A stretch of 64,000 bases of DNA from an uncultured Bacilli bacterium. Its GTDB lineage: Bacteria > Bacillota_I > Bacilli_A > RF39 > UBA660. A model generated the notes under the pieces. The model was not told the DNA's origin, ran no database searches, and saw only the letters and a list, made by a program, of their open reading frames with translations. The DNA is taken from assembly GCA_944358115.1 (NCBI GenBank), contig CALVQH010000001.1, positions 5,263 through 69,262 on the forward strand. Reading direction: 5' to 3'. Made by a program: the position numbers and the translations under genes. Shown piece by piece: positions 2,141 through 51,799 of this stretch. Positions within the stretch are counted from its first letter, which is position 1; each line of letters opens with the position of its first letter.

Positions 2141-2380
2141 ATGAATAAAGATTATAAATTTAATCCTGAAATGTATAAAACAGTAGCAAAAAATGTAAGA
2201 AAATACCGTAAAGAAAAAAGGCTGTCAATCGATGAATTAAGCAAATATGCTGAGATCAAAAAAGAATTTTTACAAAACTTTGAACTAGCTGAAACTAACA
2301 TGCCCATTTCTATTTACGATTTATATAAAATTAGTGTGATTTTAGATACTAGTATTGATCAATTTTTTGTTGAATCTTAA
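2141..2380 (+). CDS. Small XRE-family HTH transcriptional regulator (79 aa), paralog of the upstream gene
   Basis: NVRKYRKEKRLSIDELS HTH. It shares the C-terminal 'LYKISI(V/I)LD...D(K/Q)FF(I/V)E' with the neighbouring gene. Confidence 0.6.
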   Translation: MNKDYKFNPEMYKTVAKNVRKYRKEKRLSIDELSKYAEIKKEFLQNFELAETNMPISIYDLYKISVILDTSIDQFFVES

Positions 2381-2438: not shown

Positions 2439-3116
2439 ATGATAAAAAGGAAAAAAAGAGGAAGTTTAATTATTATTTCTGGTACTACTTGTGCTGGAAA
2501 AGGAACCGTAATCGAAGAATTATTAAAACGAAATGAAAATCTATATTTATCCATTTCTTATACATCAAGACCTAAAAGAGGTAGTGAAGTAGATGGGAAA
2601 GACTATTTCTTTGTATCTCCAGAAGAGTTTCAAAGAAAAATAGATCATGGAGATTTTTTGGAATATGCCCAAGTTCAATATGGCTGTTATTATGGAACGC
2701 CTAAAAAAGAAATAGAAGAGAAACTAAAAGAGGGAATGGATGTAATCCTAGAAATTGATGTTGAAGGAGCAAAACAAGTAAAGGCACTTTTTCCAGAAAC
2801 CATTTTAATATTTATTATGGCCCCTTCGATGGAAGAGATTAAAAGGCGAATCAAAAAAAGAAACACCGAAAATCCAGAACAAATCATTAAACGATTTCGA
2901 AAAGCTTATCAAGAAATTAATGAAATTAATAAATATAACTATGTGGTCGTAAATGATAATGTTCTAGACGCAGTAAAAAAGATTGAAGCTATTTTAATCA
3001 GTGAAAAGTGCCGTGTCGATAGAATTGAAGAAATAAGTGTGGAAAATGAAGAAGAAATCATTCATGAATTCTTAATGGATGAATATTTTAATAATGATAC
3101 CAAACCAATTGTGTGA
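2439..3116 (+). CDS. gmk: Guanylate kinase
   Basis: P-loop GTTCAGKGT and the SYTSRPKRGSEVDGKDYFFVS GMP-binding motif. Confidence 0.9.
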   Translation: MIKRKKRGSLIIISGTTCAGKGTVIEELLKRNENLYLSISYTSRPKRGSEVDGKDYFFVSPEEFQRKIDHGDFLEYAQVQYGCYYGTPKKEIEEKLKEGMDVILEIDVEGAKQVKALFPETILIFIMAPSMEEIKRRIKKRNTENPEQIIKRFRKAYQEINEINKYNYVVVNDNVLDAVKKIEAILISEKCRVDRIEEISVENEEEIIHEFLMDEYFNNDTKPIV

Positions 3117-3265
3117 GTGTTTGGTTTTATTTTTGTAAAAATTGTTTAAATAGTCAAAAAAAGAATTGATTTTTATTTCATAATAAGGTATATTAATAAC
3201 ATAGGATAGTTAAAATTTACCTATCATTATTTTTTATAATATTAAGAGCCTATTTATGTATTAAG

Positions 3266-10921: not shown

Positions 10922-11806
10922 ATGGCAATTCTTTTAAAGAAAAAATTAGAAGTAATGAATCATTTAAAAAACGAAGTAGAATTCATTGAAAAGTTAAATG
11001 AAAAAAAGCCTCATGTGAAAGTAGGAATCTTGAATTTAATGCCAACCCTAGAAGATACTGAAAGACAATTAATGGTTGCTCTTGATACCAAATTGTTGCA
11101 AGTAGAACTAGACTTTTTATATTTAGATACCAAAATAGTAGAGAAAGAAAAAAAAGAGTATTATAAAAAATATTATCGTTCTTTTAGCGAAATAAAAAAA
11201 GAGGACTATGACGGTATCATTATCACCGGTGCTCCTCTTGAACATATTAATTATCATGATATTGATTATATTGAAGAATTAAAAGAATTCTTTAAATACA
11301 CGAAACAACATGTAAGATCAACTCTTTTTTTATGCTGGGCCTCTCAATTCGGTTTACAATATTTTTATGGTGTCAATCGCTATAATTTACCAGAAAAGTT
11401 ATCAGGGATATATGAACATTATATTGTAAAAGAAACGAATTTAGTAAAAGGTTTAAATGATTATTTTTTAGTACCCCAATCAAGATATTGTAGTGTGATT
11501 GAAAGTGAAATTATGGATCGTAAGGATCTTATATTAACAAGCAAATCCAATGAATCTGGACCTTATATTATTGAAAGTATTGATGGCAGTAAAGTCTTTT
11601 TAACAGGACATGCTGAATATGATTTATACACGCTAGATAAAGAATACAAACGAGATATAAATAAAGGATTAAAAATAGATCCGCCATGTAATTATTATAA
11701 AGAGAATGATCCAAAGAAGGATCCAATCTATTCATGGCATGCAACTTCAACCATTATTTATCATAATTGGTTATATTACTATGTTTACGAAGAAGAAGTA
11801 ATGTGA
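10922..11806 (+). CDS. metA: Homoserine O-acyltransferase (MetA family)
   Basis: VGILNLMP...ETQLM...GAPLEH motifs of the MetA/HTS family. Confidence 0.8.
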   Translation: MAILLKKKLEVMNHLKNEVEFIEKLNEKKPHVKVGILNLMPTLEDTERQLMVALDTKLLQVELDFLYLDTKIVEKEKKEYYKKYYRSFSEIKKEDYDGIIITGAPLEHINYHDIDYIEELKEFFKYTKQHVRSTLFLCWASQFGLQYFYGVNRYNLPEKLSGIYEHYIVKETNLVKGLNDYFLVPQSRYCSVIESEIMDRKDLILTSKSNESGPYIIESIDGSKVFLTGHAEYDLYTLDKEYKRDINKGLKIDPPCNYYKENDPKKDPIYSWHATSTIIYHNWLYYYVYEEEVM

Positions 11807-12102
11807 AGAATTTGCCGAAAAGAAAGTATTTTTCCACATCCAAGTTCAATAGTTTTTGAATTTGGATGTATTTTTTTGATTGTACTTTGAATTTCTCTTA
11901 TTTTTCCTGCTTCATAAAAAGTAAGAACAATAGAATCTTTACTATAATAAGCATCCATAATTTCTTCGCTTAAAAAACTAATTTCTTCAGGAAATAAAGT
12001 TGGTTTTTGGAAAACTTGCTGTTCATCAATTTCTCGAAAAACTTCCTTCGAAGGAATAAGAGATTCGAAAGGCCGCCATTTGACAAAACCACGATCAATC
12101 AT
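11785..12102 (-). CDS. YolD-like protein (UmuD-like accessory of the Y-family polymerase)
   Basis: ~105-aa protein immediately downstream of, and overlapping, the Y-family polymerase gene, as in Bacillus uvrX/yolD and yqjW/yqjX pairs. Confidence 0.45.
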   Translation of the reverse strand: MIDRGFVKWRPFESLIPSKEVFREIDEQQVFQKPTLFPEEISFLSEEIMDAYYSKDSIVLTFYEAGKIREIQSTIKKIHPNSKTIELGCGKILSFRQILHITSSS

Positions 12103-13370
12103 GCACTGTGTCCTCCAATCTTTTTATTTCTTTCATAAATGGTTGAATCTGGAAGTAAACTAGATGCTTTTAAAAGAGCATTTTTTCCATACTTATCTTT
12201 AATTTCTAATATAGCTTGATTAATTTGTTCTTGTTCCTTCACTTTTTCTACTTCATCAAAAATATTTAATTGAACTCCTGTTTTATCTTTAAGTTCACCA
12301 CAAGAAACAGTAACCTTACGAATAGGTAATCCTTCATAAAACTTATCAAAAATCATAAGACAGTTTGCTAAAATAACTTGTTCTACATCAGTTGGATTAT
12401 TAAGCTTGATTTGATGAAAGAACCCACCGCCAACACTTTTAGAATATCCAATTCCAAGTCCAATAACAGAAGTGGTTTTATGGTTTTTATAAAGACGAAT
12501 AGCAATTACTTCAACCATTTCTCGAATAATAATTTTAATATTATCACCATGATAATCTTTAAATAGTACTTGACTATGAGAATAAGATTTATCTTCTACT
12601 TTTCCCATATCTCCAATCCGACTTAAATCAATCCCGTTTGCATGATTCCAAAGCTCTTCGCCAATTACTCCGAATTTTTGTTTTAATTCATGACGATCAA
12701 AATGAGCTAAATCATACATCGAATAAATACCTAGTTTATTGAGATTTGCTTCCATCCTCGGGCCAATTCCCCAAACTCTAGATAGGGGAGAAATGCACCA
12801 TAATTTAGTTGGAATATCATCATAATCCCATTTAGCAATAAAATCTTGATTATGTTTTGCTTCAATATCCATACTAACTTTAGCGAGTAACATATTAGGT
12901 CCAATCCCACAAGTAGCGCATAAGCCAGTAGATTTTTTTACATCTTTTAAAATATCTAAGGCAAGCTCATAATCACTTTTTCCATACATTTTAAGATAGT
13001 CCGTAACATCCAAAAAACATTCATCAATCGAATAAATATGTAAATCTTCTTTTGCAACATATTTTAAATAAACTTCAACAACCTCTCTAGATTTCGCTAA
13101 ATATAGGCTCATTCGTGGTTTTGCAATGGTATATTGAATGTGTTTTGGTATTTGATAAAGTCGTCCTCGAGAGGGAACACCTTTCGTTTTTAGATAAGGA
13201 CTAACAGCTAGAGTAATGGCACCATTACCTTGAGTAGGATTCGCAACCACTAAAGGATAATTAAAAGGATCTAATCCTCTTTCAATACATTCACAACTAG
13301 CAAAAAAACTTTTTAAATCAATACACAAAAAATGTCTGTGTAAATAAACCGTATCCATATGCATCACCAT
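12099..13370 (-). CDS. Y-family DNA polymerase (UmuC/DinB/UvrX-like)
   Basis: LCIDLKSFFASCE catalytic motif (D..FFAS.E). Palm and little-finger regions. Confidence 0.85.
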   Translation of the reverse strand: MVMHMDTVYLHRHFLCIDLKSFFASCECIERGLDPFNYPLVVANPTQGNGAITLAVSPYLKTKGVPSRGRLYQIPKHIQYTIAKPRMSLYLAKSREVVEVYLKYVAKEDLHIYSIDECFLDVTDYLKMYGKSDYELALDILKDVKKSTGLCATCGIGPNMLLAKVSMDIEAKHNQDFIAKWDYDDIPTKLWCISPLSRVWGIGPRMEANLNKLGIYSMYDLAHFDRHELKQKFGVIGEELWNHANGIDLSRIGDMGKVEDKSYSHSQVLFKDYHGDNIKIIIREMVEVIAIRLYKNHKTTSVIGLGIGYSKSVGGGFFHQIKLNNPTDVEQVILANCLMIFDKFYEGLPIRKVTVSCGELKDKTGVQLNIFDEVEKVKEQEQINQAILEIKDKYGKNALLKASSLLPDSTIYERNKKIGGHSA

Positions 13371-13434: not shown

Positions 13435-13890
13435 TTAATTTTTAACCAAATCTAGTTTTATCTCTTCATCGATTTTACCAGTAACAAAATCAGCTGAAAC
13501 ATGAAAGTACTTACAAAAGCCTATAATATAACTCGTAAGAGCAAGATTAATGCCATTTTCATATTTACTAATAGAAGAACGAGTAATATTAAGAATTTTC
13601 GCAAGCTCATCTTGAGTCAAATCATTTTCGCGTCTAATTCTTTTAATTCTTTTAGCAAGTAATTTAGAATCAATTCTTTTACTATTTTCATATTCCCAAA
13701 CTTCAGTAAAACCTAAAACATAATCTAGTGATACATGAAAGATATTACAAAACTTATCTAATTGTCTTAATGGAATTAAATCATTTTCTCTTTCCCACAT
13801 GTTATAACTGTTCCTAGATACTCCTAGAATTTCCGCAACTTCTCTTTGCTTTAAATCAGCATATATTCTTACCTTTTTTAGTCTCATCAT
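13435..13890 (-). CDS. Tandem-HTH XRE-family transcriptional regulator (two HTH_XRE domains)
   Basis: Two repeats of 'L...R...L.Q.ELA..L..S...YS..E.G'. Divergent from paralog 2. Paralogous to 50613-51056 and 59106-59543. Confidence 0.8.
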   Translation of the reverse strand: MMRLKKVRIYADLKQREVAEILGVSRNSYNMWERENDLIPLRQLDKFCNIFHVSLDYVLGFTEVWEYENSKRIDSKLLAKRIKRIRRENDLTQDELAKILNITRSSISKYENGINLALTSYIIGFCKYFHVSADFVTGKIDEEIKLDLVKN

Positions 13891-14083
13891 CTTAAAACTC
13901 TCTTTCTTATGTAATCATTTTTACACAAAATATTAAAACAGAGAACTACACATAGTGATAAGAAATAAAAAGTAAATAAATATAACAAAATATAAAAATA
14001 AAATTACAAAATAATTGACAATCACTCAATAATAATGTATAGTAAAAATATATCATAGAAAAACATAGTAGAAAGAAATTGAA

Positions 14084-14113
14084 AAGTTTTGACAACGTTT
14101 GTCGAATACCATG
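14084..14113. promoter_or_regulatory. Conserved operator-like element upstream of paralog 2
   Basis: AAGTTTTGaCAAcgTTTGTCGAA matches the 3266-3295 element in 21 of 23 positions. A TTGACA-17-TATAGT promoter lies about 70 bp upstream. Confidence 0.5.
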
Positions 14114-14165
14114 TATTATCTATTAAAATGTGATATGATGCCAAAAGGAAAGGAAGAGAAGAAGA

Positions 14166-15380
14166 ATGGAGTTCGAAACTTTAAAACAAAGTCATTTAAA
14201 AAGAAATATTATGATAGGAGTAGTAGCAGTACTAATTATTAGTGCCGTAGTACTAAATTTTACCAGAGCAAAATACCGAGTGACACAATCAATACCTTTA
14301 GTCAATGGTACAATCAATTATAGTTTAGCAGACCTAAATATTGTAGCACTATACATTGATGGAGTAGCAGCTGACGAATTAGATAGTTCTAAAAATTATA
14401 CACTAGATACCGATCAAAGTACATGCACCTACAAAGATGGTAGCACAATTCAAAATTTAACATTAAATTATGATAGTGATACCAAAACATTTACGATTGC
14501 TCCTTATACAACCAAGGGAACAAAGTGTACATTGTATTTTGATGAACAAAAGATACCAGCAGTAGATGTAATAGAAGAAGCTTATAACACTAATCCAAAC
14601 ATGTTAGCATATGATGATTATGGAAATTTAAGATACATAGGAGCAGACCCAAATAATTATGTTTTATTTAATAATGAATTATGGAGGATCATAGGAGTAT
14701 TTAGTGAAGATACACATGGAGTAAGTGGAGAAAAATTAGTAAAAATAATTAGAAGTGAATCAATAGGAAGTATAGAATGGGATAGTGGTAACGTAAATGA
14801 TTGGTCCACAGCCAGTTTACAAACAACATTGAATGGGGATTATTTAAATGGAAGTGGAAGCTATGCTAGTACTGGGATAAAAAGTGATACAGCAAGAAAT
14901 ATGATTGAAACGGTAACATGGAAACTTGGTGGAAGAGCAAGTTATACAAGTTCCAGTAATGGACTAGCAAGTCATTTTTATGGATATGAAAGAGGAACAA
15001 CAGTATATAGTGGAAGACCAACAACATGGAGTGGAAAAGTAGCATTAATGTATCCAAGTGATTATGGATATGCCACAAGTGGAGGTTCAACAACAAATAG
15101 AGAAGCATGCCTAGCCAAAGAGTTGTACAACTGGGATTCGTCAAGTTTTAGCGATTGCAAGAACAATGACTGGCTTTATGATAGCAGTACATATCAATGG
15201 ACACTTACGCCGGGCTCGTCGCGTTCGGACTACGTCTTCCTTGTGGGCAAGCCTGGTTTTGTGGGCCGCAGCAATGCGAGCTACTCGAGCGAGGTCCGTC
15301 CTTCGGTATATCTAACATCGAATGTGAAAATCTCAGGAGGTGATGGAACTAGTAATAGTCCATACACTTTGGAGGTGTGA
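14166..15380 (+). CDS. Signal-anchored surface protein, paralog 2 of the GVRP-domain family
   Basis: N-terminal TM followed by TRAKYRVTQSIPLVNGTINYSLADLNIVA, nearly identical to the 59740 protein. The C-terminus LWRIIGVF...GVRPSVYL...GGDGTSNSPYTLEV is shared. The last ~200 nt are unusually GC-rich. Confidence 0.7.
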   Translation: MEFETLKQSHLKRNIMIGVVAVLIISAVVLNFTRAKYRVTQSIPLVNGTINYSLADLNIVALYIDGVAADELDSSKNYTLDTDQSTCTYKDGSTIQNLTLNYDSDTKTFTIAPYTTKGTKCTLYFDEQKIPAVDVIEEAYNTNPNMLAYDDYGNLRYIGADPNNYVLFNNELWRIIGVFSEDTHGVSGEKLVKIIRSESIGSIEWDSGNVNDWSTASLQTTLNGDYLNGSGSYASTGIKSDTARNMIETVTWKLGGRASYTSSSNGLASHFYGYERGTTVYSGRPTTWSGKVALMYPSDYGYATSGGSTTNREACLAKELYNWDSSSFSDCKNNDWLYDSSTYQWTLTPGSSRSDYVFLVGKPGFVGRSNASYSSEVRPSVYLTSNVKISGGDGTSNSPYTLEV

Positions 15381-15449: not shown

Positions 15450-15734
15450 GTGGGAATATATAATAGATATTATATTGCTAAGAAAAAACATCAAGAATAT
15501 CTTATTGTGATTATAAGAAAAGGAAAATATGTTTCTTATGGTATTGATGCTCTCATACTAAAACATTTAAAGACAAATGTGAATATAGAGCATCAACTAC
15601 AAGAAAAACATATTAATTATCTAATATTAGATAATTTAGATATTATAAGTAAATATGCTGATGAAAATAATCAGTATAATAAATATTTTTATTTAGAAAC
15701 AATTAGAAAAATATTAAATAAAATTGTAGGGTAA
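15450..15734 (+). CDS. Small ORF with MutS domain-I-like (mismatch-binding) N-terminal signature; possible gene remnant
   Basis: YYIAKKKHQEYLIVIIRKGKYVSYGIDA resembles MutS [28 protein letters not shown]. GTG start, weak RBS. Confidence 0.35.
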   Translation: MGIYNRYYIAKKKHQEYLIVIIRKGKYVSYGIDALILKHLKTNVNIEHQLQEKHINYLILDNLDIISKYADENNQYNKYFYLETIRKILNKIVG

Positions 15735-15751
15735 GTATTAGTAAAAAACCG

Positions 15752-15856
15752 AACTCGTCGAATTCGAACAACGTCTTCAATGTGAACAATACTGGTTATG
15801 TGAACAACAACAACAATGCGAACAACTCGAACGGGGTCCGTCCTAGAGCTTTCTAA
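15752..15856 (+). pseudogene. Degenerate partial copy of the 3' end of the 14166-15380 gene
   Basis: ~75% nt identity to 15214-15320. Translates to SSNSNNVFNVNNTGYVNNNNNANNSNGVRPRAF* versus the gene's SSRSDYVFLVGKPGFVGRSNASYSSEVRPSVYL. Differences are mostly G/C in the gene versus A in the copy. Confidence 0.6.
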
Positions 15857-15997
15857 TAATCGGGATTTTATGGTTAAGACTATAATTTGTGTATGTTAGA
15901 AAACATTACTTATCCTAAGGCTTAGCCTTGAATAACATATATGGATGGAAAGTGATACGTCACTTTCCTAGTACTATATATTAAGAAAAAAATTAAA

Positions 15998-16357
15998 ATG
16001 AAATTTGTAACAATTAGAAAAATGGGTTTATTTTATCAAGTATTTGATGATGATGCTTTCATATTGCATTATTTATTAGATTATAAAGTAATAGATAGGA
16101 AAGCAGGCTTTCCCAATAATGCAATTAATAAAGTAATAAATATTTTGGAAGCAAAAAAAATTAATTATAAGATTATTGGCGAGAATATAACAAAAGATTT
16201 TAAAGATTTAAATAAATATGCTTTTTATTTAGCAAAATCTAAAGACAAAATAGTTGTTCAAAATTTAATTCATAATATTGAATTAAAATTGGAAGAAAAA
16301 GATGAAAGCGAGTTGCTTCAAATATTAGAAGGAATTGAAAAACTGGTGAATGAATAA
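15998..16357 (+). CDS. Small ORF with MutS domain-I-like signature (119 aa)
   Basis: IRKMGLFYQVFDDDAFILHYLL...AGFPNNA...KKINYKIIGEN parallels MutS [15 protein letters not shown]...GVPYHS...KGYKVAICEQ. Confidence 0.4.
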   Translation: MKFVTIRKMGLFYQVFDDDAFILHYLLDYKVIDRKAGFPNNAINKVINILEAKKINYKIIGENITKDFKDLNKYAFYLAKSKDKIVVQNLIHNIELKLEEKDESELLQILEGIEKLVNE

Positions 16358-16461
16358 TGAGTTTCGAATTGTAAAAAATATGAAGCAATTTATTTTATCT
16401 CTAGATTCTTTTTTATCTTATAGGAAAGTACACGAAAAACGTGTATTTTTAAAACTTATTC

Positions 16462-16490
16462 TTGACGAACGTATGTATTTACAGTATAAT
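16462..16490 (+). promoter_or_regulatory. Sigma-70-type promoter for tnpB
   Basis: TTGACG, 17-nt spacer, TATAAT; about 20 nt upstream of the GGGGTGA RBS. Confidence 0.6.
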
Positions 16491-16509
16491 ACTATTATCA
16501 GGGGTGATT

Positions 16510-17652
16510 ATGATTATGAAAATACACAGGGCATATCAATTTCGTTTGTATCCAACAAAAGAACAAGAAGTAATTATTCGTAAAACATTTAGATGTACGA
16601 GATTTGTTTATAATTATTGTTTAGATTTAAAAAAGAAAAATAATTATTTAACTAAGTTTGACTTAATGAAAGAATTACCAAAATTAAAAAAAGAATATCC
16701 CTTTTTAAAAGAAATAGATAGTTGTTCCTTACAAAATGCCATTACAGATTTAATGGTAGGTTTTAGATTGTTTGAAAAAGGCCATGGAGGATATCCTAAG
16801 TTTAAGAAAAAAGGAGTAAAAGAAAGTTTCCGTACTAGTTTTATTACTAGTAGTTATAAAGGTACAATTTATGAAAATATAAAACTAGATTTAAAAAGAA
16901 GAATCATTGAATTACCAAAAATAAAAGAGATTAAAATAAGAGGATATCGTAATTTAGATAAGATTAGTGGAAGAATACTAAATGCCACGATAAGAGAAGT
17001 AGGCACTAGATTTTATGTGTCTGTATGTGTAGAAGAAGAAATCAAGTTACCAGAAAGAAAAAATAATCAAGCAGTAGGAATCGATATAGGAGTAAAGAAC
17101 TTAGTTGTAACAAGTAATAAAGAATATTATGGGAATCCCCGATATTTAGAAAAATATGAAAAAAAGATAAAAAGATTCCAACAAGAATTATCAAGAAAAA
17201 TAAAGGGAAGTAAAAACTATATTAAGTGTAAGAAAAAATTAGAAGAAGTATATCGAAAGCTAAAAAATGCAAGAAAAAAGACAGTAGAAGAAATAGTAGC
17301 CAAAATAATAGCCTTACATGATATTATTATTGCCGAGAATCTCCAAGTAAAGAAAATGTTAGAGCATAAAAATAACCACAAACATTTACGAAAAGAAATC
17401 ACAAATGCTACATTTAGTGAAATCATAAGAGTACTCAAATATAAGTGCAACTGGTTAAATAAGATATTTATTCAAGTAAATCCCTATTATGCAAGTAGTC
17501 AGATTTGTAGTGGATGTGGAAATAAAGAAAGTATTATGAAAGATATAAGAGTAAGAGAATATAAATGTAGTAAATGTGGTTTAGAAATAGAGAGAGATTA
17601 CAATGCAAGTTTGAATATATTAAAAGAAGGATTAAGATGTTACAATAATTAA
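16510..17652 (+). CDS. tnpB: TnpB (IS605 OrfB family RNA-guided endonuclease)
   Basis: N-terminal MKIHRAYQFRLYPTKEQ (OrfB_IS605 N-terminus). RuvC-like core. C-terminal zinc finger CSGCG...CSKCG. RBS GGGGTGA before ATG 16510. Confidence 0.85.
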   Translation: MIMKIHRAYQFRLYPTKEQEVIIRKTFRCTRFVYNYCLDLKKKNNYLTKFDLMKELPKLKKEYPFLKEIDSCSLQNAITDLMVGFRLFEKGHGGYPKFKKKGVKESFRTSFITSSYKGTIYENIKLDLKRRIIELPKIKEIKIRGYRNLDKISGRILNATIREVGTRFYVSVCVEEEIKLPERKNNQAVGIDIGVKNLVVTSNKEYYGNPRYLEKYEKKIKRFQQELSRKIKGSKNYIKCKKKLEEVYRKLKNARKKTVEEIVAKIIALHDIIIAENLQVKKMLEHKNNHKHLRKEITNATFSEIIRVLKYKCNWLNKIFIQVNPYYASSQICSGCGNKESIMKDIRVREYKCSKCGLEIERDYNASLNILKEGLRCYNN

Positions 17653-17770
17653 ATTAAATGAAAATAAAGAAAGAAAGTACGGGAGCAACTCTCGGAGTTT
17701 ATGTCTGTGATGTATTAAAATACAGCAGAAAAAAACGAATCGTGAGGTTCGGCGAATTAACGTAAGTTAA
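17600..17770 (+). ncRNA. Candidate TnpB-associated guide (omega-RNA) / IS right-end region
   Basis: Structured segment spanning the 3' end of tnpB and ~120 nt downstream. Stem-loops such as ctgtgatgtatt-aaa-atacagcag and the near-palindrome ttcggcgaa. By analogy to IS605-family omega-RNAs only. Confidence 0.25.
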
Positions 17771-18199
17771 TTCTTATGTTCTTTAAATAGATTAGACCAT
17801 TATATTATTCACAATTTACATTTAAAGTATTATGTTCGATATATGGATGACTTTTTAATATTTCATCATGACAAATATTATTTGGAAGAATGTCTAATTA
17901 AAATAAAATATCAATTAAATAACATTTATCATTTGAATATTAATGAAAATAAAACAAAGATAATTAATACAAAAGAAGGATTCGTCTTATTAGGTTATTA
18001 TTTTAAAATAAGAAATAAAAAGACAATAATAAAACAAACATGGAATAAAGTACAAAAAAGAATAAAAGATAGTAATGATTTATATAATAAAAAGCAAATA
18101 ACTTTTTCCAAATATTTTTCATCTATTAATAATTATCGCTTTACTTTTAAATATTCTAATAATCATAAAATAACAAAATATATTGAAAGAAATTATTAG
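17771..18199 (+). pseudogene. 5'-truncated reverse transcriptase (retron/group-II/Abi-like RT, C-terminal part only)
   Basis: The frame opens right after a stop at 17768 and reads ...NRLDHYIIHNLHLKYYVRYMDDFLIF (RT motif 5, YxDD), then LNINENKTKI (motif 6) and GFVLLGYYF (motif 7). No fingers/palm motifs 1-4 and no start codon. Confidence 0.65.
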
Positions 18200-32621: not shown

Positions 32622-32890
32622 TGGAAAAAGAAGATATTATTACACTTGAAGATAATACCGAGTATATGGTGCTAGATACAGCTCTTTTAAATCAAGAAAA
32701 ATATTTATATTGTGTGCGAATAGATGAAGAAGAAAAACCAACAAGTGAATATAAATATTTTAAAGAGATTAATGAAAATAATGAATTATTCACGGAAGAA
32801 GTAGAAGATGAAGTCGTGATTGAAACCATTACTTCTATGTTCGCCGCTGATTATTTAAATAGTGTAACAGACGAAGAACAAGACGTTTAA
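32621..32890 (+). CDS. DUF1292-like small acidic protein
   Basis: MEKEDIITLEDNTEYMVLDT...YLYCVRIDEE pattern. Confidence 0.45.
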   Translation: MEKEDIITLEDNTEYMVLDTALLNQEKYLYCVRIDEEEKPTSEYKYFKEINENNELFTEEVEDEVVIETITSMFAADYLNSVTDEEQDV

Positions 32891-32894
32891 AAGG

Positions 32895-33080
32895 AAAACT
32901 AAAAAAGAGACTTGATGGTTGGTGAAAAATCAAGAGTAGAACTTTTAAAAAATCACTTGGGAGTCGAATATTTGATAAGTAAAATATTACGTAACTTTGC
33001 GTTAAAAAGAAAAAGAGAAAAATAAAGGTGGTACCGCGCATAAAACTTGCGCCCTTTGGTGCTACCTTTTTTGTGTAAAA
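32895..33080 (+). promoter_or_regulatory. T-box riboswitch leader controlling ileS
   Basis: Conserved T-box sequence AAAGGTGGTACCGCG at 33024-33038 overlapping a terminator (gcgccctttggtgctacc plus T6). Candidate AUC specifier at 32929-32931. Confidence 0.75.
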
Positions 33081-33093
33081 AGAAGGAGGAAAT

Positions 33094-36000
33094 ATGAAAA
33101 ATTTTAAAGATTTAGACAAACGTAACGTAAATTTAGTAGAAAAGGATATAAGGGATTACTGGGATAAAATAGATATCCTAAAAAGAAGTATTGAAACGAG
33201 AGATAAAGAAAATAACTTTGTTTTCTATGATGGACCAGCAACCGCAAATGGTATGCCAGGACTTCATCATATGGTAGCAAAATTCTTAAAAGATACATTC
33301 TGCAAATATGAAACAATGAAAGGAAAAAGAGTAATAAGAAAAATTGGTTGGGATACCCATGGCTTACCCGTGGAAGTTCAAGTTGAAAAGAAACTTGGGT
33401 TTACTGGCAAAGGTGACATTGAAAAATACGGAATTAAAGAATTTAATCAAAAATGCCGCGAAACTGTTTGGGAAAATGAAGATGCTTTCTCTAGACTAAC
33501 CAAAGAAATGGGACAATTCATTGATTTAGAGCATCCCTACATCACGTATAATAATGACTATATCGAAACGGAGTGGTGGATCTTAAAGAAATTCTTTGAT
33601 GAAGGATTATTCTATGAAGGTCTAAAAATTTTACCATATTGTCCTAGATGTGGTACCGGTCTTGCCTCACATGAAGTTCAACAAGGCTATAAAGAAGTAG
33701 AGGTAGATACAGTCATCGTTCCTTTTAAAAGAGTAGATAAAGATGAATATTTCTTAGTTTGGACAACTACTCCATGGACCTTAATTGCTAATGTTGCTTT
33801 ATGTGTTCATCCCGATGAAGATTATGTACTAGTAGAATCAAAAGGTTATAAATTTATTTTAGCTGCTAAATTAGCATCAACTGTTTTAGGCGAAGAATAC
33901 ACCGTTTTAGATACATTTAAAGGTAGTACCCTAGAAAATGTTGGTTATGAGCAATTGATACCAAGCTTGTCAGTTAATAAAAAAGCATTCTATGTAACGT
34001 GTGATACGTATGTAACCATGGAAGATGGAACGGGTATTGTTCACATTGCTCCTGCTTTTGGTGCGGATGATTATGAAGTAGGAAGACGTTATAATTTGCC
34101 AATTTTAAATCCAGTTGGTGATGATGGCTGTTATACGGAAGGATTATGGAAGGGAATGTTTGTCTTTGATGCGGATAAAGAAGTCATTAAATATTTAAAA
34201 GAAAATGATAAATTATTCAAAAAAATTCACATGACTCATAACTATCCTCATTGTTGGCGTTGTAATACTCCACTCATCTATTATTCAAAACCAAGTTATT
34301 ATTTAGAGATTACTAAAATAAAGGATAAAATTGTAGAAAATAATAAAAAGGTAAATTGGTACCCAGATTATGTCGGTGAAAAAAGATTTGGCAACTGGCT
34401 AGAAAACTTAAATGACTGGGCTATTTCTAGAAGTCGTTATTGGGGAACTCCACTACCACTTTGGAGATGTGAATGTGGCCATATGGATATGATTGGTTCC
34501 CGCACAGAATTAGTTGAAAAAGCGATTGAAGAAATTGATGAATCCATTGATTTACACCGTCCATATGTTGATGATGTTCATATCAAGTGTCCAAAATGTG
34601 GTAAAGTAATGAGTCGTACGCCAGAAGTAATTGACTGTTGGTTCGATAGTGGAGCAATGCCTTTTGCTCAATATCATTATCCATTTGAAAACATGGATAT
34701 CTTTGAATCTCAATTTCCAGCTGACTTCATTTGTGAAGGAATTGATCAAACCAGAGGTTGGTTCTATTCTTTAATTGTTATTGGTACTTTTGTAAAAGGT
34801 GTAAGTCCTTATAAAAATGTATTAGTAAACGAATTATTACTAGATAAACATGGTAAAAAAATGCATAAATCAAAAGGCAATGCAATTGAACCATTTAGCT
34901 TGATGGAGCGTTTCGGTGTAGATACTATTCGTTGGTACTTACCTTATACTTCTCCTGTATGGACCCCAATCAAGTTTGATGAAGATGGCTTAAAAGAAGT
35001 ATATTCAAAATTCTTTAATCCCCTAAGAAATACTTATAATTTCTTTCAATTATATGCCAATACCGATCATATTGATATTGATGAATGTAAAGTAGCTTAT
35101 GAAGATTTAGAAGAAATTGATAAATGGTTATTATCAAAATATCATAATCTATTAAAATATGTAATCGAATCTTATGATGAATATGATTTAAATAAAGTAG
35201 TAAAGAGTATTACTAACTTTGTATCAGAGGATCTATCAAACTGGTATATTAGAAGAAATAGAAGTCGCTATTGGGGTAGTGAGCTTAATAATTCCAAAAA
35301 AGCCGTTTATAGTACAACTTATGAAGTTTTAGTGGGTGTATGTAAAATGATCGCTCCCGTAATTCCATATTTAAGCGAAGAATTATATCGTAATCTAACG
35401 GGAGAAGAATCTGTTCATCTAGCATATTTCCCTAAATACAATACAGAATATATTGATCTAAAACTAGAAGAAAAAATGGATACAGTAAGAACCCTAATTA
35501 GTATTGGCCGAAATGTTCGTGAAGAAGCGAAAATTAAGGTCAGAGAACCACTTTCAGAATGTTTATTAAACGCTGATTTAAAAGACTTAATCTCTGATTT
35601 AAAAGATTTAATCTTAGAAGAATTAAATGTCAAAGAAGTAGTCTTTGCCAGTGATTTAAATAAATACATGAGTTTCTTTGTAAAGCCAAACTTTAAAGTA
35701 GCTGGACCTGTATTTGGATCTAACATTCAAGTATTTAGTAATATTCTAGCCAATTTAACCGAAGAAGAAATTACAACTTTAAATAAAGGAGAAACCATTC
35801 ATATCACGATAGATGATACAGAATATGAAATTGATTCAAGCTATACCGATATTCGTATTAATGCCAAAGAAGGATACAATGTAGGCATGGAAAATAATTT
35901 ATTTGTTATTTTAAATACTGTACGTAGTGAAGAATTAATTTTAGAAGGAATTGCTCGTGAATTTGTATCTAAAGTTCAAAATATAAGAAAGAAAGAAGAT

Positions 36001-36186
36001 TACAATGTAGCAGATCGTATTACTATCGCTTATCATGGTGATGAGGTAGTTAAAAAATCAGTAGAAATGTTTGAAGATTATATCAAGAGTGAAACATTAA
36101 CTACGAAAATTACTTATCAAGAAGAAATAAAAGATGATCTAGATCTAAATGGTCATCAAGCTGGAATTACGACAAAGAGAGTTTAG
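33094..36186 (+). CDS. ileS: Isoleucine--tRNA ligase (long, type-2-like form)
   Basis: HIGH-region PGLHHMVAKF, WAISRSRYWGTPLP, KMHKSKGN (KMSKS), C-terminal Zn-ribbon CPKCG. 1030 aa. Confidence 0.85.
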   Translation: MKNFKDLDKRNVNLVEKDIRDYWDKIDILKRSIETRDKENNFVFYDGPATANGMPGLHHMVAKFLKDTFCKYETMKGKRVIRKIGWDTHGLPVEVQVEKKLGFTGKGDIEKYGIKEFNQKCRETVWENEDAFSRLTKEMGQFIDLEHPYITYNNDYIETEWWILKKFFDEGLFYEGLKILPYCPRCGTGLASHEVQQGYKEVEVDTVIVPFKRVDKDEYFLVWTTTPWTLIANVALCVHPDEDYVLVESKGYKFILAAKLASTVLGEEYTVLDTFKGSTLENVGYEQLIPSLSVNKKAFYVTCDTYVTMEDGTGIVHIAPAFGADDYEVGRRYNLPILNPVGDDGCYTEGLWKGMFVFDADKEVIKYLKENDKLFKKIHMTHNYPHCWRCNTPLIYYSKPSYYLEITKIKDKIVENNKKVNWYPDYVGEKRFGNWLENLNDWAISRSRYWGTPLPLWRCECGHMDMIGSRTELVEKAIEEIDESIDLHRPYVDDVHIKCPKCGKVMSRTPEVIDCWFDSGAMPFAQYHYPFENMDIFESQFPADFICEGIDQTRGWFYSLIVIGTFVKGVSPYKNVLVNELLLDKHGKKMHKSKGNAIEPFSLMERFGVDTIRWYLPYTSPVWTPIKFDEDGLKEVYSKFFNPLRNTYNFFQLYANTDHIDIDECKVAYEDLEEIDKWLLSKYHNLLKYVIESYDEYDLNKVVKSITNFVSEDLSNWYIRRNRSRYWGSELNNSKKAVYSTTYEVLVGVCKMIAPVIPYLSEELYRNLTGEESVHLAYFPKYNTEYIDLKLEEKMDTVRTLISIGRNVREEAKIKVREPLSECLLNADLKDLISDLKDLILEELNVKEVVFASDLNKYMSFFVKPNFKVAGPVFGSNIQVFSNILANLTEEEITTLNKGETIHITIDDTEYEIDSSYTDIRINAKEGYNVGMENNLFVILNTVRSEELILEGIAREFVSKVQNIRKKEDYNVADRITIAYHGDEVVKKSVEMFEDYIKSETLTTKITYQEEIKDDLDLNGHQAGITTKRV

Positions 36187-37905: not shown

Positions 37906-40900
37906 ATGAAAGAATTAAAACATCTTCGTAAACAAAATGAAAAACAATTCTTAAATGATGATGGGTCTATTTCCCTATATCTCTATAACAATGATATTCA
38001 TTATTTAAAAAATGGTGAATATCTAGAAATTGATAATACACTCGTTGAGGAAGAAAATAACATCATTAATAAAGAAAATAATTTTCATACACGTTTTACG
38101 AAAGATACAAAAACAAATTTATTAGTAGATATTACCAAAGATAATTATTATCTAAAAATTTATTTAATGAAATCAAAAAATAATGCAATGAATATGAAGA
38201 AAAATAAAAACAATATAAAACTAGAAAATATCTTAGAAGATATAGATATTGATTATCATGTAATATCGACACAATTAAAGGAAGCTATTATTTTAAAAAA
38301 TAAAAATAATATTCCTACCTCTTTATCTTTTAAAGTAGATACTAACCTAGATTTAGAAGTGGAAGAAAAGGGAAGTGTTCTAGCAAAAGATAAAGAAAAA
38401 CCAATTTTTGTAATTGCAGCACCTTTTATGAAAGATAATAAAGGAACATACAATTACAAGATAAAATACGATTTAAGTTTAAAAGATGATACGTATATCT
38501 TAAACTTAAATTTAGATCAAGAATGGTTAAATGAAGCAGAGTTCCCTGTAGTAATTGATCCAACAATTGTAAATCCGGACGAAGAAGATCCAGAAAATGT
38601 ATATGATGCATATATAAGCTCGAGTCTTCCTGATATGAATATGAATACTCACGAGGAACTATACGTTGGTTCGAATTCAACTAGAACAACAAGAACATTA
38701 TTAAAGTTTAAACTTCCAACAATTGGTACAGGATATGATATTGTAAATGCCACAGCGTATCTAAATAGCGAATTTATGTCTTTAAATGGTAAAACAATTA
38801 ACGTTCATGAGATAACTAACGATTGGAATGAAGCAACAGTTACTTGGAATAGTATCTATGATAAGTATAATTCAAAAATCGAAGAGTATTTTTATGAACA
38901 AAGAACGGTACAAAGTGAGAAAATATTCCCGTTCAATATTACCAATTTAGTCAAAAAATGGTATGCGGGTAATCCTAATTATGGCCTCATGTTAAAGTTA
39001 AATGATGAAACGCCAAATGATGACAATGATAGTTACATCTTTTATTCTAAAACTTATGATGGTTTAAATGAAACAGGATTAAGGCCTTATTTAGCCATTA
39101 CTTATCGTAATCAGAATGGCCTAGAGGATTATATGACTTATCAAACACAAGAATACACAGATGGTGCAAGCTATATCAATAATTTAACTGGTAATCTAAC
39201 CACTACATTCAATTTAAATGAAACAATAGGGGGTAAATATCCAATTGGTTTAAGTCTAGTTTATAATACGAATGATATGGTTTTAAATAATAACTATGGT
39301 TATCAATCTGGATACAAATTAAATTTACATGAAACAATAAAAGAAGTAACAATAGACCTAAATAATTACTTAGAATATATAGATGCTGATGGTACAATCC
39401 ATTACTTTCGAAATGAATTAGATGAAGAAGGAGAAAAAATTGATAATAAGTACATAGATGAAGATGGATTAGGCCTAAACGCTACAAAAGAAACAAATAA
39501 AGTAATAATAGAAGATATAAATAGTAATAAATATGAATTTTCTTTAAATAATAATATTTATTATTTAACCAAATTAACAAATACAAATAATGATAGTGTA
39601 ACAATAACATATGATACAAATAACCGAATCAATAAAGTAACAGATGCCAATAATTCTAGCATCAATATTACATATAATACAAATAATATGATTATTACCA
39701 GTGATAGCACAACAACAACAGTCAATTATACAAATAATAAAGTAACTAGTATAATAAGTAAAAATGGTACCACCAATTTTACTTATAATAATTATGGCTT
39801 AATTAGTAAAATTACCGATGTAAATGGATTAAGTAAAGCTTTTAATTATTATGATGTAAGTCCATATAAAATAAAAAAAGTAATAGAATATGGCTTAAAT
39901 GATGAAGAAGGAGCTTCTCTAGAATTTGAATACGGCTTTTTAGTTACAAGAGTAAAAGATAATAAGGATCGATATAATACCTATATTTTTAACGAACAAG
40001 GAAATACAATTGGTTTTACGAATTTAGATGAAGAAGCAAATTTAAATAATGCTTATGGAAAAGGTGTAGTTTATGAAAATACCACAATTTATAAAGAAAA
40101 TAATGGTACCTATTTTGAAGATATAAATCGAGCAGGAAATAAATTGAAAAATGAAATATTAGCAGTTAAATACACGAAAAATTTAATTAAAAATAGTAGT
40201 TTTGAAGATGCAGAAACATTCTTTATTGGAACTAGAACAACGGAAGAAAAAAGAACTGGAAGTTATAGTTTAAAATTTTCTGATTATTGCTATTTTGAAG
40301 ATCCATCTCTTCCGCCGCGAGGAAAAAATTATACTTTTAGTGGATACTTTAAAAATGATAAAACCTTAACCATGAGCTTAGAAAGAAGAGGATTAAATAA
40401 AACGGATACTTTAGATATAATATCTATTCCTCCAAATGAAGATTTTACAAAATATAGCGTGACGGGTGATTATCCTTCTTCTGAAGAAGAAGGCGGATAT
40501 ATTTCAGTAACGATAACTTCAAATGAAAAAGGAACAGCCTATTTAGATGATGTACAACTTGAAGAAGGAGAAATTGCTAATTATTATAATATGTTAGAAA
40601 ATGGTGATTTCCATGATGGATTAACTGGATGGAATGCAAGTGCCTATGATCGTGAAGGAAATAGTATTAATAATGTAGCAAGTGTAGTAACATTAGAAAA
40701 TGGCGTAAAAGCTTTAAAAATAGCTTCTAATCCTGATTTAGATATTGCTGTTTCCACTACTTTAAAAGTAAATGGAATTGGTGATTTATCGGAAGATAGA
40801 ATAGGAGACTTATATAATTTATCATTCTGGTATAAAAACGAAGGATTACCAAAGGGCGGAACAGGAATGGAATATAGTAATTCTGTATTATTAAGCTTTT

Positions 40901-43900
40901 ATTATACCAACGTACCTGAAGGTGAAGGGTACGGAATTGATCCTATTGGTTTAACTTCTCATAGTAATGAATGGCAATATTTCTCAGCTCCATTCCCAAC
41001 AGATAGTTTATATAATTATGATACCATCGCTTTAACCATATTATCAAATTATAATGCCAATAACTTATATATTACCAATATTTCTTTATCAAAAGATATA
41101 GAACAAAATTATAATTATCATAATAGTGAAACTGGTAATTTAGAGGGAATTAGAAACATGGATAGTTCTCATGCTAGTTTCACTTATGATGAAAATAATC
41201 AATTAACAAGTATGTTTAATCCATTAGGTAATAACTTTAAATTTGAATACGATAATGTGGTAACAGATCGTATATTAAAAGGAATATCACCATCAGGAAT
41301 ATCGAATGAAATTTTATATGATGAATTTGGTAATCCTAAAAAAACAATCATCAATAATGTCAATCCAGATCAAGATATTATGGATGGTAAAACTTATTAT
41401 ATTCGTTTAAAAGGTTCACAAGAATATTGGGATAGTAATTTTATAACAAATGAGATTTTATTAAAAGAAGATAATTGTAGTCATGATACTTACACTCTTT
41501 TAAAAGAGGGTGAATACTTCCGAATAAAAAGTGGGAATGAGTATGTAACACTCATAAATGATTCAATTGGTTTAACCAAGTTAATGACTGATGATTCTTT
41601 GTTCAGATTTTTCCTCCAAAACAACAATAGTTACATCATCATTCCCAAAACCAAAGATAATACATTACTAGAACACAATCTAGCAAATGTAAATGGTAAA
41701 ATTTCTTTAAAAACAAGTGATACCAAAGAATATGAAGAGCAATTTTATTTTGAAGATATTGATACGCAATTGTTTATTGAATCAAAAGCGGAATATACTG
41801 AAGATGGAAAGTTTGTTACCCAAACAATCGATTCTTTAGGCAAAGTTACATCTTATGATATTAATACCACCAATGGTTTAACTAATAGTATTACTGATGC
41901 AAACAACATAACAACTTACTATACTTATAATACTAAAGATCAAATAACCAAAGTAAAGAAAGAAAACAAAGAAGTAAACTATGATTATAATAGCAATAAT
42001 TTACTATCAAAAATAACTTCAAATAACAAAGAATATAACTTTACTTATGATAATTTCTTAAATTCCAAACAAATAAAAATAGGAGACAATATTACTCTTA
42101 TTACTAATAATTATGAAAATAATAATGGGAATCTTCTATCAAGTGTTTATGGTAATGGTGATACATTTAGTTACACTTATGATGAACTTGATAGAATTAA
42201 AACAATGACAAATGATGCTAGTACCTATACATATCATTATGATAATTTGGGCAATTTAGCTAAAATAACAAGTATAAGTGAAAATTATAATTATTATTAT
42301 GACTTATCTAATAGGATTAGCAAATACCTAGTCAATAACTTTAATATTGAGTATGACTATGATTCGAATAATAATATACTTAAGAAAGAGTATACATTAA
42401 ATGATAAAGAAACAGTTACTTTTGAATATAACACCGATGATGCAATAACCAAAGTAACATTCGATAATAATAATTTAAATTATGCTTATGATTATCTAGG
42501 AAGATTAACTAGTAAAGATATAAATGGCAATCAAAAGATAGAGTATACATACATAACAAATGGTAATAAAACTTCTACTGTATTAAAATCCATGAAAATA
42601 AATAATGATTTATATGAATATTATTATGATCATCTATATAATATCACAGATATTTATTTAAATAATAAATTAATTAATCATTATGAGTATGATAATTTTA
42701 ATGAACTAATTAAAGAAGATAGCTATAGTTTAAACAAAACAATAAGATATACTTATGATAATGCTGGAAACATATTAAAGAAACAAGAATACGAATTAGA
42801 TACTTATAATTTATTACATACAGATACTTATGAATATAATAATGTTAATTGGGAAGGCCAATTGACAAAATATAACAATGAATCAATTACTTATGATGCT
42901 ATAGGTAATCCATTAACCATAGGAAATAAAACACTAACTTGGGTAAATGGTAGACAACTAGCAAGTTATACCGATGAAAGTCTAAATATTTCTTATACTT
43001 ATAATAAAGATGGAATAAGAACAGAGAAAGTAATAAATAATACAAAAACTAATTACTTTACAGAAAATAATAAGATAATATTTGAACAAACAGGAAATAA
43101 TATGGTATACTATATACGAGATGAGGAAGGAAGTTTAATAGGATTTAAATATAATAATACACTTTATTATTATATAAAAAACATGCAAGAAGATATCATA
43201 GGAATAACGGATAGTAATTATAACTTAGTATGCAGTTATGAATATGATTCATGGGGAAAACTAATATCCATTAAAGATAATAATGGAAACATTATTACTA
43301 ATACATCTCATATAGGTTATATCAATCCATTTAGATATAGGTCATACTATTATGATAATGAAACAAAGTTGTATTATCTAAATAGTAGATACTATAATCC
43401 AGAATGGGGTAGATTTATTAATGCAGATAGATTTATAAGCACAGATACAGGTATAATTGGCTTCAATATGTATGCTTATTGTAATAATGAGCCAATATCA
43501 AGAAAAGATTATAGTGGAAGTTTCTTCGGACTAGTTTTTGGAATGTTTGCAGTTACAGCTGGAATTATTCTTGGTGCAGAGATTATTGATAATAATAATA
43601 AAAAACAAAATAAAAAAGCTAAAAAAGAAATAGAAGAAGTGCAAAAAAAACACAATGTTTGTCCAATAGAAGAAAATAAAAATTTTAAAGAAACTTTAAA
43701 AACTAATGCAAAAAAAGTTCAAAATGATACTCAAAATATGAATTATATAGAAAGACTAAACTATTTAAGAGAAAATGCAAATGATGGTCAAAAATTCGAT
43801 TTAAAACTATTTACAAAAGATACAATATTTTATGACGGTATGTATATGGAACCACAAGATATCGGTAACTATCACTTTGGGTACATAGGTAGAGCTGCAG

Positions 43901-44070: not shown

Positions 44071-44620
44071 AAAGAAAATTGTTATTGCTGGTATTCTAAT
44101 TGTATTAATAGCGTTATTAATAATTCCAATAATAGTTATTATGATACTTTTTGTTGATGGCCTTAAAGAGAATGCTATTGATAAAAAGGCTATGGAATAT
44201 GAAAGTGAAGAAAAGCGCTTAGAATACTTTTTAGAAAATGAAGAATACCTTAATAAATTAGCAAACTATTTTATAGAATATCCAGAACTTGATAGAATAG
44301 GAAAAAACATTTGGTGTTCTAATGCCGATGAACCAACATATGAATTGAATGATATAACAATTTGTACTTATAAAAAATTAGAAAATCTACCAATTAAAGA
44401 TATTGTAGAAATATATAAAAAAACAAACCTTTCAATTGTTGGTAGAAGGAATGACTGTATTGCATTTTATTTATACATAACAACATATCATGATGTTTGC
44501 TATAATTATTATTTCACTTCTTCAAAAAGTGAATATATAAAATATGATTATGGGATAATTGAAGAAAATGAAATAAATGAGAATTGGAGTAGTATGTTTT
44601 CAAATATTCCTTATGATTAA
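44045..44620 (+). CDS. Putative cognate immunity protein (N-terminal TM, 191 aa)
   Basis: Overlaps the last 26 nt of the RHS gene, the typical toxin-immunity arrangement. TM helix IVIAGILIVLIALLIIPIIVIMILF. Confidence 0.5.
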   Translation: MIKNIKINRKKIVIAGILIVLIALLIIPIIVIMILFVDGLKENAIDKKAMEYESEEKRLEYFLENEEYLNKLANYFIEYPELDRIGKNIWCSNADEPTYELNDITICTYKKLENLPIKDIVEIYKKTNLSIVGRRNDCIAFYLYITTYHDVCYNYYFTSSKSEYIKYDYGIIEENEINENWSSMFSNIPYD

Positions 44621-50416: not shown

Positions 50417-50424
50417 ATAATTAA

Positions 50425-51771: not shown

Positions 51772-51799
51772 GAGTATAATAAAAGCAAGAGGTTTAATT

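Follow-up and report, generated by a model that had tools for sequence, protein, structure and literature searches.

Diversity-generating retroelements (DGRs) with a C-type-lectin target, an Avd protein and a MutS-like (MSL) accessory gene are a known kind of system. Targets with this fold include Mtd of Bordetella phage BPP-1, TvpA of Treponema denticola and LdtA of Legionella, and the MSL class co-occurs with avd in DGR architecture D (Wu et al. 2018, PMC5758913). The DUF6273 family (PF19789) has the C-type-lectin fold and serves as a DGR target (PMC10743442, bioRxiv 2024.10.15.618418); such targets, among them the 'tentaclins' and those of Toutatisvirus, are known from gut phages. According to a further report (bioRxiv 2024.11.15.621889), chromosomal DGRs of gut commensals diversify surface adhesive proteins in the type V pili of Bacteroides. 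Here we analyze a 64,000-nucleotide stretch of DNA from an uncultured Bacilli bacterium (RF39, UBA660; GenBank assembly GCA_944358115.1, contig CALVQH010000001.1, positions 5,263 to 69,262), which we call the window. It carries three paralogous genes, P1, P2 and P3, and we find that P2 encodes the variable protein of a chromosomal DGR. Our reading of the whole, to which we give a probability of about 0.85, is that the three genes encode extracytoplasmic binding proteins with a lectin fold under local control by XRE-type regulators, and that P2 is a DGR target whose cassette was broken here by an insertion sequence (IS).

The P2 locus shares with the lectin-target DGRs an adenine-specific pair of template repeat (TR) and variable repeat (VR), with the VR at the C-terminal end of a domain of predicted C-type-lectin fold for which TvpA and Mtd are structural matches. 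It also shares Avd and the reverse transcriptase (RT), present in an intact relative, and small MutS-like accessory open reading frames (ORFs). It differs in that P2 is predicted to be anchored by an N-terminal transmembrane (TM) helix and to have a small beta-sandwich as its stalk, in that the TR lies between two MutS-like ORFs, and in that a divergent gene for a tandem helix-turn-helix (HTH) protein is part of the conserved locus. In addition P2 belongs to a large, mostly non-diversified paralog family, and its RT and avd genes have been destroyed by the IS in the window. The likeness to the DUF6273 phage targets lies in the position of the VR at the end of the domain and in weak family matches among orthologues. 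Identity to DUF6273 proteins, including the N-terminal domain of the Thomasclavelia ramosa IgA protease (PDB 9qa6), is however only ~15%, and the window proteins are chromosomal, cellular and apparently membrane-anchored, not virion proteins or protease fusions. From the Bacteroides adhesins they differ in phylum, in anchoring (TM anchor versus pilus subunit) and in target domain family.

Sensitive blastn comparison of the window with itself matches nucleotides 1050-1137 of P2 to an intergenic stretch ~370 nt past its stop codon (E = 1.3e-10). The copy inside P2 is the VR and the intergenic copy the TR (Table 1). There are 22 substitutions between them, 20 of which lie at TR adenines (Fisher test, p about 1e-11). 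Both repeats close identically with GGTCCGTCCT, after which the sequences part, and the TR, which encodes PNSSNSNNVFNVNNTGYVNNNNNANNSNGVRP, is an AAY-rich template typical of DGRs.

The variability of P2 among relatives follows the template. We collected 35 close orthologues from metagenomes (83-99% identity), whose differences are concentrated in the VR stretch. In the 36 sequences including P2, every one of the 17 TR codons that have an adenine in first or second place corresponds to a hypervariable column (1.5-3.2 bits, mean entropy 2.73), while the 15 other TR codons are nearly invariant (≤0.59 bits, mean 0.19) and the remainder of P2 has 0.18 bits. The two kinds of codon are perfectly separated (U = 255, p 7e-7), and 34 distinct VR peptides are found. 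The same pattern of variability recurs in another group of 62 orthologues, at 65-70% identity. When the window is compared with a syntenic strain, L089, the TRs are identical at 111/111 nt whereas the VRs differ; the window TR matches the L089 VR at 78% over 96 nt. By homology, the VR is placed at the last strands and loop of the lectin-fold domain modeled for P3. The first-pass annotation had described the family as diversifying. For P2 this is so, through a DGR, a mechanism which that annotation lacked; the TR, both MutS-like ORFs, the Avd and RT remnants and the IS all lie just downstream of position 15380, where its region ended. No such mechanism was seen for P1 or P3.

We also noted that P2 codon 343 (15192-15194) is Y, T, I, A or H among orthologues. 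It lies upstream of the TR match, separated from it by five invariant codons, and the TR as defined does not account for it. In the stretch that separates the TR from the second MutS-like ORF (15845-15997) there are two perfect short hairpins, AAGGCT/AGCCTT at ~15917-15929 and GGAAAGTGA-TACG-TCACTTTCC at ~15947-15968, which may be a structured 3' part of the DGR RNA. The G+C-rich hairpin that follows the P2 stop codon is a candidate terminator or DGR target-recognition hairpin.

The complete cassette is found in strain L089, where the target is 91% identical to P2. The order there is a divergent tandem-HTH regulator, the target, a 94-residue ORF, the TR, a 119-residue ORF, bAvd (PF22296) and an RT of 352 residues (RVT_1). 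The Avd protein also matches NCBIfam DivGenRetAVD with E = 7.6e-14, its 51.9 bits lying under the cut-off of 80. The best solved relative of the RT is a reverse transcriptase of 328 residues (8ub7, E = 1.5e-20), for which the search tool gave no name and which we take from its length to be the Bordetella phage DGR enzyme. The IGNLTSQ sequence of the L089 RT is the DGR-type [LIV]GxxxSQ motif. The cassette position of the two MutS-like ORFs and their co-occurrence with avd fit the MSL class, with weak family matches (Table 1). Homologues of the 119-residue ORF are found downstream of the cargo gene, as we call P1, P2, P3 and their relatives, at further loci (L001-L006 and L033).

Within the window, synteny with L089 stops at 16415/16416 and restarts at 17778/17779. 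Between these points an IS element has taken the place of 885 bp of the cassette, and with them avd codons 23-112 and RT codons 1-210 were lost. Its ends are set by synteny with L089 alone. The TnpB protein matches Pfam OrfB_IS605 and the zinc-ribbon family TNB, and reaches 280.7 bits against NCBIfam guided_TnpB (cut-off 100); the element has no tnpA. What is left of Avd is codons 1-22, the whole gene being present in L089, and of the RT, likewise intact in L089, residues 212-352 remain. This RT remnant covers RVT_1 profile positions 153-204 (E = 1e-5) and has an in-frame stop upstream. Two other samples have the same disrupted locus, and the P2 protein encoded there is identical. Two orthologues that are 99% identical (P0271 and P0272) keep the VR core of the window and differ only at codons next to GVRP, which have no adenine in the TR; they come from short contigs that may or may not carry the IS. 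We read this as a DGR that has stopped in the window lineage because the IS took out the greater part of avd together with the first two-thirds of RT, leaving a frozen VR that is beginning to drift, with one codon deleted and two changes away from adenines. The window thus holds a natural knockout, with a frozen VR to set against the 30-odd distinct VRs of close relatives.

We can propose how the intact system would work. In each protein a hydrophobic anchor or signal at the N-terminus is followed by a stalk of one or two predicted beta-sandwich domains and, at the C-terminus, by a predicted C-type-lectin-fold domain of DUF6273 type. The TR would be transcribed, and a complex of RT and Avd would copy the transcript into cDNA, with random errors at adenines. 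This cDNA would then be exchanged for the VR in the 3'-terminal part of P2, so that the 17 codons predicted to line the binding face of the lectin fold are randomized and the scaffold codons stay fixed. In the window lineage the loss of most of avd and of the N-terminal two-thirds of RT to the tnpB element would have ended diversification.

P1 and P3 are ordinary non-diversified paralogs. Sensitive blastn with each gene found no TR-like copy for either in the window, the only matches being those from paralog to paralog, and there is no RT or avd gene within ±3 kb of 80 P3-like loci from other genomes. A search for TR/VR pairs in 88 related loci gave internal repeats in 10, of which one, L081, was aligned base by base. 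It was rejected as a TR/VR pair, having no adenine bias and the similarity expected of tandem paralogs.

Small MutS-like ORFs do lie downstream of P3-like cargos carrying a TTTGTCGAA box at three loci in other genomes (L001 9547-9780, L005 7512-7766 and L033 5477-5710), with no TR, avd or RT detectable within the fetched flanks. These ORFs may be remnants of lost DGR cassettes. At another locus (L007 4709-8190) two family members of 430 and 729 residues stand in tandem without an HTH partner, adjoined by a gene resembling an ADP-ribosyltransferase exotoxin (PF03496).

All three ORFs listed in the first-pass annotation are present in the window. For P3 the start at 59740 is favored over that of a longer ORF from 59707, since homologues begin MEFETLK. 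The proposal of a paralogous surface-protein family with a common C-terminal domain is supported by the alignments, most clearly for P1 and P3, which are 40% identical over 335 residues (E = 3e-52). P2 is far less alike than had been stated. Its C-terminal domain is a remote relative of the other two (24% identity, E = 3e-7), retaining LWRII, QWTLTP in place of YWTMSPY, VRPS..L and GDGT..SPY.L, with the ITADE and RLIY blocks absent. P3 itself ends in GIGT..DPY where GDGT had been given. At the N-terminus the first 200 residues of P2 and P3 are 45% identical (E = 2e-45), their DNA is 76% identical over 210 nt, and in the segment TRAKYR.TQSIPLVNGTINYSLADLNIVA, correctly described before as almost identical, a single residue differs. 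With a shared P2/P3 N-terminus and a P2 C-terminal domain only remotely related to those of P1 and P3, the family is by its alignments a mosaic and not uniform. It has three members within the window, where tblastn finds no further cargo paralog, but at least 7-9 in each of the related genomes.

The C-terminal domain had been likened to an uncharacterized 'YWxRSP...VRPxxxL' surface-protein domain. That domain corresponds to Pfam DUF6273, which is matched weakly, and by homologues only: 17 of 31 for P3 and 13 of 36 for P1 (best E about 1e-6), some homologues also having precomputed PF19789 matches. P1, P2 and P3 themselves gave nothing significant in Pfam, NCBIfam or PHROGs, and the cargos matched no PADLOC defense-system model. 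Judged by sequence, the window proteins are divergent DUF6273 relatives and not formal members. In its fold the domain is not uncharacterized. Searches of PDB sequences with single sequences and with a profile matched no solved structure, and a BFVD fold search gave weak matches only. The AlphaFold model of P3 (pLDDT 81) has a TM helix at residues 10-36, a highly conserved, disordered juxtamembrane segment at 33-54, a small beta-sandwich at 57-124 and a confident C-terminal domain. Compared with solved structures, the modeled C-terminal domain scores 13.0 with the Thomasclavelia ramosa IgA peptidase (9qa6_A, in an alignment of 184 residues), 6.3 with the C-terminal domain of Legionella Lcl, 5.0 with the DGR variable protein TvpA, about 4 with dozens of C-type lectins and 3.9 with Mtd. 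It is therefore predicted to have a C-type-lectin-like fold, one with a solved relative. The domain is widespread (5547 clusters at 50% identity) and is repeated up to 11 times in proteins of several thousand residues, which fits an extracellular binding module.

The regulators beside these genes are real. R2 and R3, the divergent neighbors of P2 and P3, score 84.7 and 74.8 bits against PF01381, above the gathering score (HTH_3 E values 1e-21 to 1e-24), and are 43% identical to each other. The two single-HTH genes reported upstream of P1 are likewise present; they lie on the same strand as P1 and are separated from it by an ORF of 225 residues (2439-3116). Orthologues of P1 elsewhere have a divergent tandem-HTH gene instead, which P1 in the window does not. 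A further tandem-HTH paralog, 43% identical to R2, lies at 50613-51122 on the minus strand. It is 52 nt from two overlapping ORFs (51175-51771 and 51752-52537) that have no Pfam match, and genes for tRNA-Pro and tRNA-Arg (50340-50501) adjoin it. The tandem-HTH family is thus not restricted to lectin-type cargos.

The pairing of regulator and cargo, which the first-pass annotation had proposed, is conserved outside the window. We examined related loci from the best 80 of more than 573 matches, the sources being gut metagenome-assembled genomes labeled uncultured Mycoplasma sp., Tenericutes, Mycoplasmatota or Bacilli, together with Mycoplasma sp. CAG:776 and Candidatus Caccenecus. Upstream sequence was sufficient at 60 loci, and an HTH gene is present at 45 of them (37 divergent tandem-HTH, 8 single-HTH), usually 175-190 nt from the cargo; the other 15 have none. 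The R2 equivalent is also present in the syntenic strains L089 and L090, and the pairing holds in unrelated chromosomal settings, for example between tsaD and rplK. Divergence of regulator and cargo is weakly correlated (Mantel r 0.21, 28 of 2000 permutations), with no correlation for the N-terminal part of the cargo. This suggests that the modules recombine.

The intergenic DNA is better conserved than the proteins and falls into two classes, that of P3 and that of P2 and P1. In the P3 class the promoter block is almost invariant as TTCTTGACTTT..GTCTAGCT..TATAATTTA..TATAAGCTAGGAAAC. The 52-nt block of the window is near-identical at many paralogous loci in other genomes and is present as a single copy in the window. 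Within it an inverted repeat, CTAGCT (59630-35) and AGCTAG (59655-60), flanks the -10 element and start site. Further downstream, 32 of 77 non-redundant loci have an AATGAAG...CTTCA hairpin box. The class of P2 and P1 has TTTTGnnAAnnTTTGTCGAA between promoter and ribosome-binding site, and the only perfect matches in the 64 kb are the two leader boxes of Table 1 (chance expectation 0.25); TTTGTCGAA is found upstream of 21 of the 77 loci. These boxes are candidate operators for the HTH proteins, and a local XRE-type tandem-HTH protein, acting through promoter and leader boxes, probably controls how each cargo is expressed.

Rfam gave nothing for the leaders, either at the gathering score or at E ≤ 5. 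RNAalifold predicts 21 pairs in the P3-class leader with almost no covariation, the sequences being too conserved. The GACAA/TTGTC palindrome of the P2-class box was considered as an RNA hairpin and rejected: substitutions in its left half are not compensated, and TTTGTCGAA never varies.

Several observations weigh against our reading of the locus as a whole. PF19789 is not matched by P1, P2 or P3 at E ≤ 1. Their location at the surface comes from a predicted TM helix, conserved cysteine pairs and analogy, and the distribution of positive charges around the TM helix is ambiguous; we infer both surface exposure and ligand binding. The VR of the window departs from the TR by deletion of one AAC codon (3 nt) and by the two changes that are not at adenines. 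Neither RT nor Avd is intact anywhere in the 64 kb. The element can therefore work here only if another part of the genome complements it, and a trans-acting RT outside the window could possibly supply the activity. Finally the TTTGTCGAA box is also found at 9 loci that have no divergent regulator.

Three other accounts of these proteins have to be weighed. They might be receptor-binding (tail) proteins of a prophage, or remnants of such proteins, with the DGR belonging to the phage and the XRE proteins being its repressors. DUF6273 DGR targets are after all best known from gut phages, several 'DUF6273 domain-containing' phage proteins are among the weak structural matches in BFVD, P2 weakly matches phrog_9958, and the regulators match the RstR phage-repressor subfamily at about its cut-off. 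The chromosomal setting makes this very improbable, however. The syntenic flanks of P2 are housekeeping genes (a class Ic aminoacyl-tRNA synthetase, tRNA-synt_1c, with NUDIX, HTS and DNA_alkylation), tsaD and rplK flank a P3 relative, and no phage structural gene lies within ±7 kb. The copies are dispersed through the chromosome, and no member begins like a tail fiber, all of them having a membrane anchor or signal at the N-terminus. We find it very unlikely, although less so, that the locus is a transmembrane signaling module, in which the lectin ectodomain senses a ligand, the 14-residue cytoplasmic tail controls the cognate tandem-HTH protein, and the DGR tunes a sensor and not adhesion. 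The tail is very short, P1 in the window has no divergent partner, the regulator family also pairs with the unrelated non-membrane ORFs at 50613-52537, and the correlation of regulator with cargo is weak and is absent for the N-terminal part. Against these stand the one-to-one divergent pairing at 45/60 loci, an N-terminal tail and juxtamembrane residues that are nearly invariant while the ectodomains diverge, and the predicted disorder of the conserved juxtamembrane segment. Cyanobacterial DGR targets fused to regulatory domains are moreover reported by literature cited in PMC11661182.

The remaining alternative takes the N-terminus of P1 as its starting point. Here the cargos would be donor-strand fiber subunits or tip adhesins of the TasA/camelysin kind, processed by a SipW-type peptidase, with the XRE proteins acting like SinR. 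In the SinR and TasA-CalY loci of Bacillus a secreted protein that has a SipW-type signal is encoded beside an XRE-type HTH regulator, and P1 similarly has a signal resembling the SipW type and XRE HTH genes nearby. The loci differ in that two HTH domains per chain are found here, the cargo has a predicted lectin fold, and sipW and sinI were not seen in the window. A SipW/TasA-camelysin-like N-terminus had been proposed for P1. This can be kept in a weak form, as 22 of 36 P1 orthologues match Peptidase_M73 weakly (best E 7e-6), but P1 itself has no Pfam match. Residues 4-65 of P1, corresponding to the TasA signal and first strand, match NCBIfam TasA with E = 0.007 and 15.9 bits (cut-off 450), and the model of its N-domain is of poor quality. 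The conserved segment that follows the TM helix of P2 and P3 is modeled as disordered in the monomer, which would suit a donor strand, and a global hhalign alignment lays FTRAKY..PLVNGTINYSL over YAFFS..FTSGCLNISL. The support from hhalign is negligible (E = 0.021, probability 1%), the beta-sandwich of P2 and P3 has only ~70 residues, and no sipW-like gene was noticed among the window ORF translations that were read, which did not amount to a systematic Pfam scan of every ORF. We consider fiber subunits quite unlikely, and retain the reading of lectin-fold binding proteins with P2 as a DGR target.

On that reading the locus is a DGR of a cellular genome, that of a low-G+C gut bacterium from a little-known lineage without cultured members, and its target would be a membrane-anchored lectin domain of DUF6273 type. 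In the searchable literature we did not find a TM-anchored target family in Mycoplasmatota-like gut Bacilli, its large non-diversified paralog family, or the natural knockout by an IS. Nor did we find described, in the searchable DGR literature, a one-to-one tandem-HTH pairing, or promoter and leader boxes conserved across paralogs whose proteins are ~45% identical. A DGR target within a large family of ordinary paralogs shows a DGR recruiting an existing binding scaffold, and the conserved pairing and boxes offer candidate operators that can be tested. If the proteins attach to host or microbial ligands, they could be the principal surface molecules through which these gut bacteria adapt. At least 7-9 dispersed copies per genome, as a repertoire of membrane-anchored lectin-like receptors with cognate regulators and near-identical boxes, could also amount to a switchable, possibly mutually exclusive adhesin or antigen system in which one member is randomized by the DGR. 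This suggestion is speculative and rather unlikely; were it true, repertoire switching and targeted hypermutation would be combined in one family, in genome-reduced gut Bacilli.

Table 1. Features of the P1, P2 and P3 loci, in window coordinates.
Feature	Position	Strand	Remarks
Two single-HTH XRE genes upstream of P1	1845..2090, 2141..2380	+	HTH_3 E 2e-9 and 4e-5; 37% identical to each other
Leader box, second copy, TTTTGGCAAGTTTTGTCGAA	3269..3288	+	in P1 leader, downstream of promoter-like site 3166-3194
P1	3346..5052	+	568 residues; camelysin/TasA-like signal and N-domain, middle beta domain, DUF6273-like C-type-lectin domain (predicted)
R2, tandem-HTH XRE regulator	13435..13890	-	151 residues; divergent from P2; two HTH_3 stretches, E 4e-24
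P2 promoter, sigma-70-like	14015..14043	+	TTGACA-17-TATAGT; 11/12 consensus; position kept in loci of the same class
Leader box TTTTGACAACGTTTGTCGAA, candidate operator	14087..14106	+	between P2 promoter and ribosome-binding site; putative function
P2	14166..15380	+	404 residues; DGR variable protein
P2 parts			short N-tail, TM helix, conserved juxtamembrane segment, small beta-sandwich, C-type-lectin-like (DUF6273-like) domain; predicted by homology to the P3 model
VR	15210..15302	+	P2 codons about 349-379 of 404; ends in GGTCCGTCCT just before VRPSVYL
G+C-rich hairpin right after P2 stop codon	15384..15416	.	DNA fold -11.4 kcal/mol, z -2.2; ~80 nt past VR
Small MutS-domain-I-like ORF, candidate MSL gene	15450..15734	+	94 residues; MutS_I E 0.098, below gathering score; 99% conserved in L089
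TR	15749..15844	+	AAC-rich; encodes PNSSNSNNVFNVNNTGYVNNNNNANNSNGVRP
Small MutS-domain-I-like ORF, second candidate MSL gene	15998..16357	+	119 residues; MutS_I E 0.0012, below gathering score
avd remnant	16350..16415	+	codons 1-22 only; 100% identical to first 22 residues of L089 bAvd
IS200/IS605-family tnpB-only element	16416..17778	+	1363 bp; from synteny breakpoints with L089 and TnpB domains
RT remnant	17783..18199	+	residues 212-352, with ...VRYMDDFLIF...; 95% identical to C-terminus of L089 RT
R3, tandem-HTH XRE regulator	59106..59555	-	divergent from P3; two HTH_3 stretches
P3 promoter block	59614..59665	+	TTGACT-17-TATAAT at 59617-59645, 11/12 match
P3	59740..61074	+	444 residues; P2-type N-terminus and P1-type C-type-lectin domain (predicted)

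Other features of the window were noted in passing. Directly behind the P2 regulator (11785-13370) are a Y-family (IMS) DNA polymerase gene and a YolD-like gene, both syntenic in L089 and L090. A T-box leader at 32865-33059 (96 bits, above the gathering score) precedes an ORF of 1030 residues (33094-36186). The region 37906-44620 holds a 2054-residue ORF with YD/RHS-like repeats whose C-terminal end is divergent, and after it a small membrane ORF (44045-44620); by their translations the two resemble a polymorphic toxin gene with its immunity gene. An ORF of 122 residues at 47946-48314 has a prepilin-type N-terminus (GYSKIEILVVIVLLGIVAFI) and resembles a ComGC-type pseudopilin.

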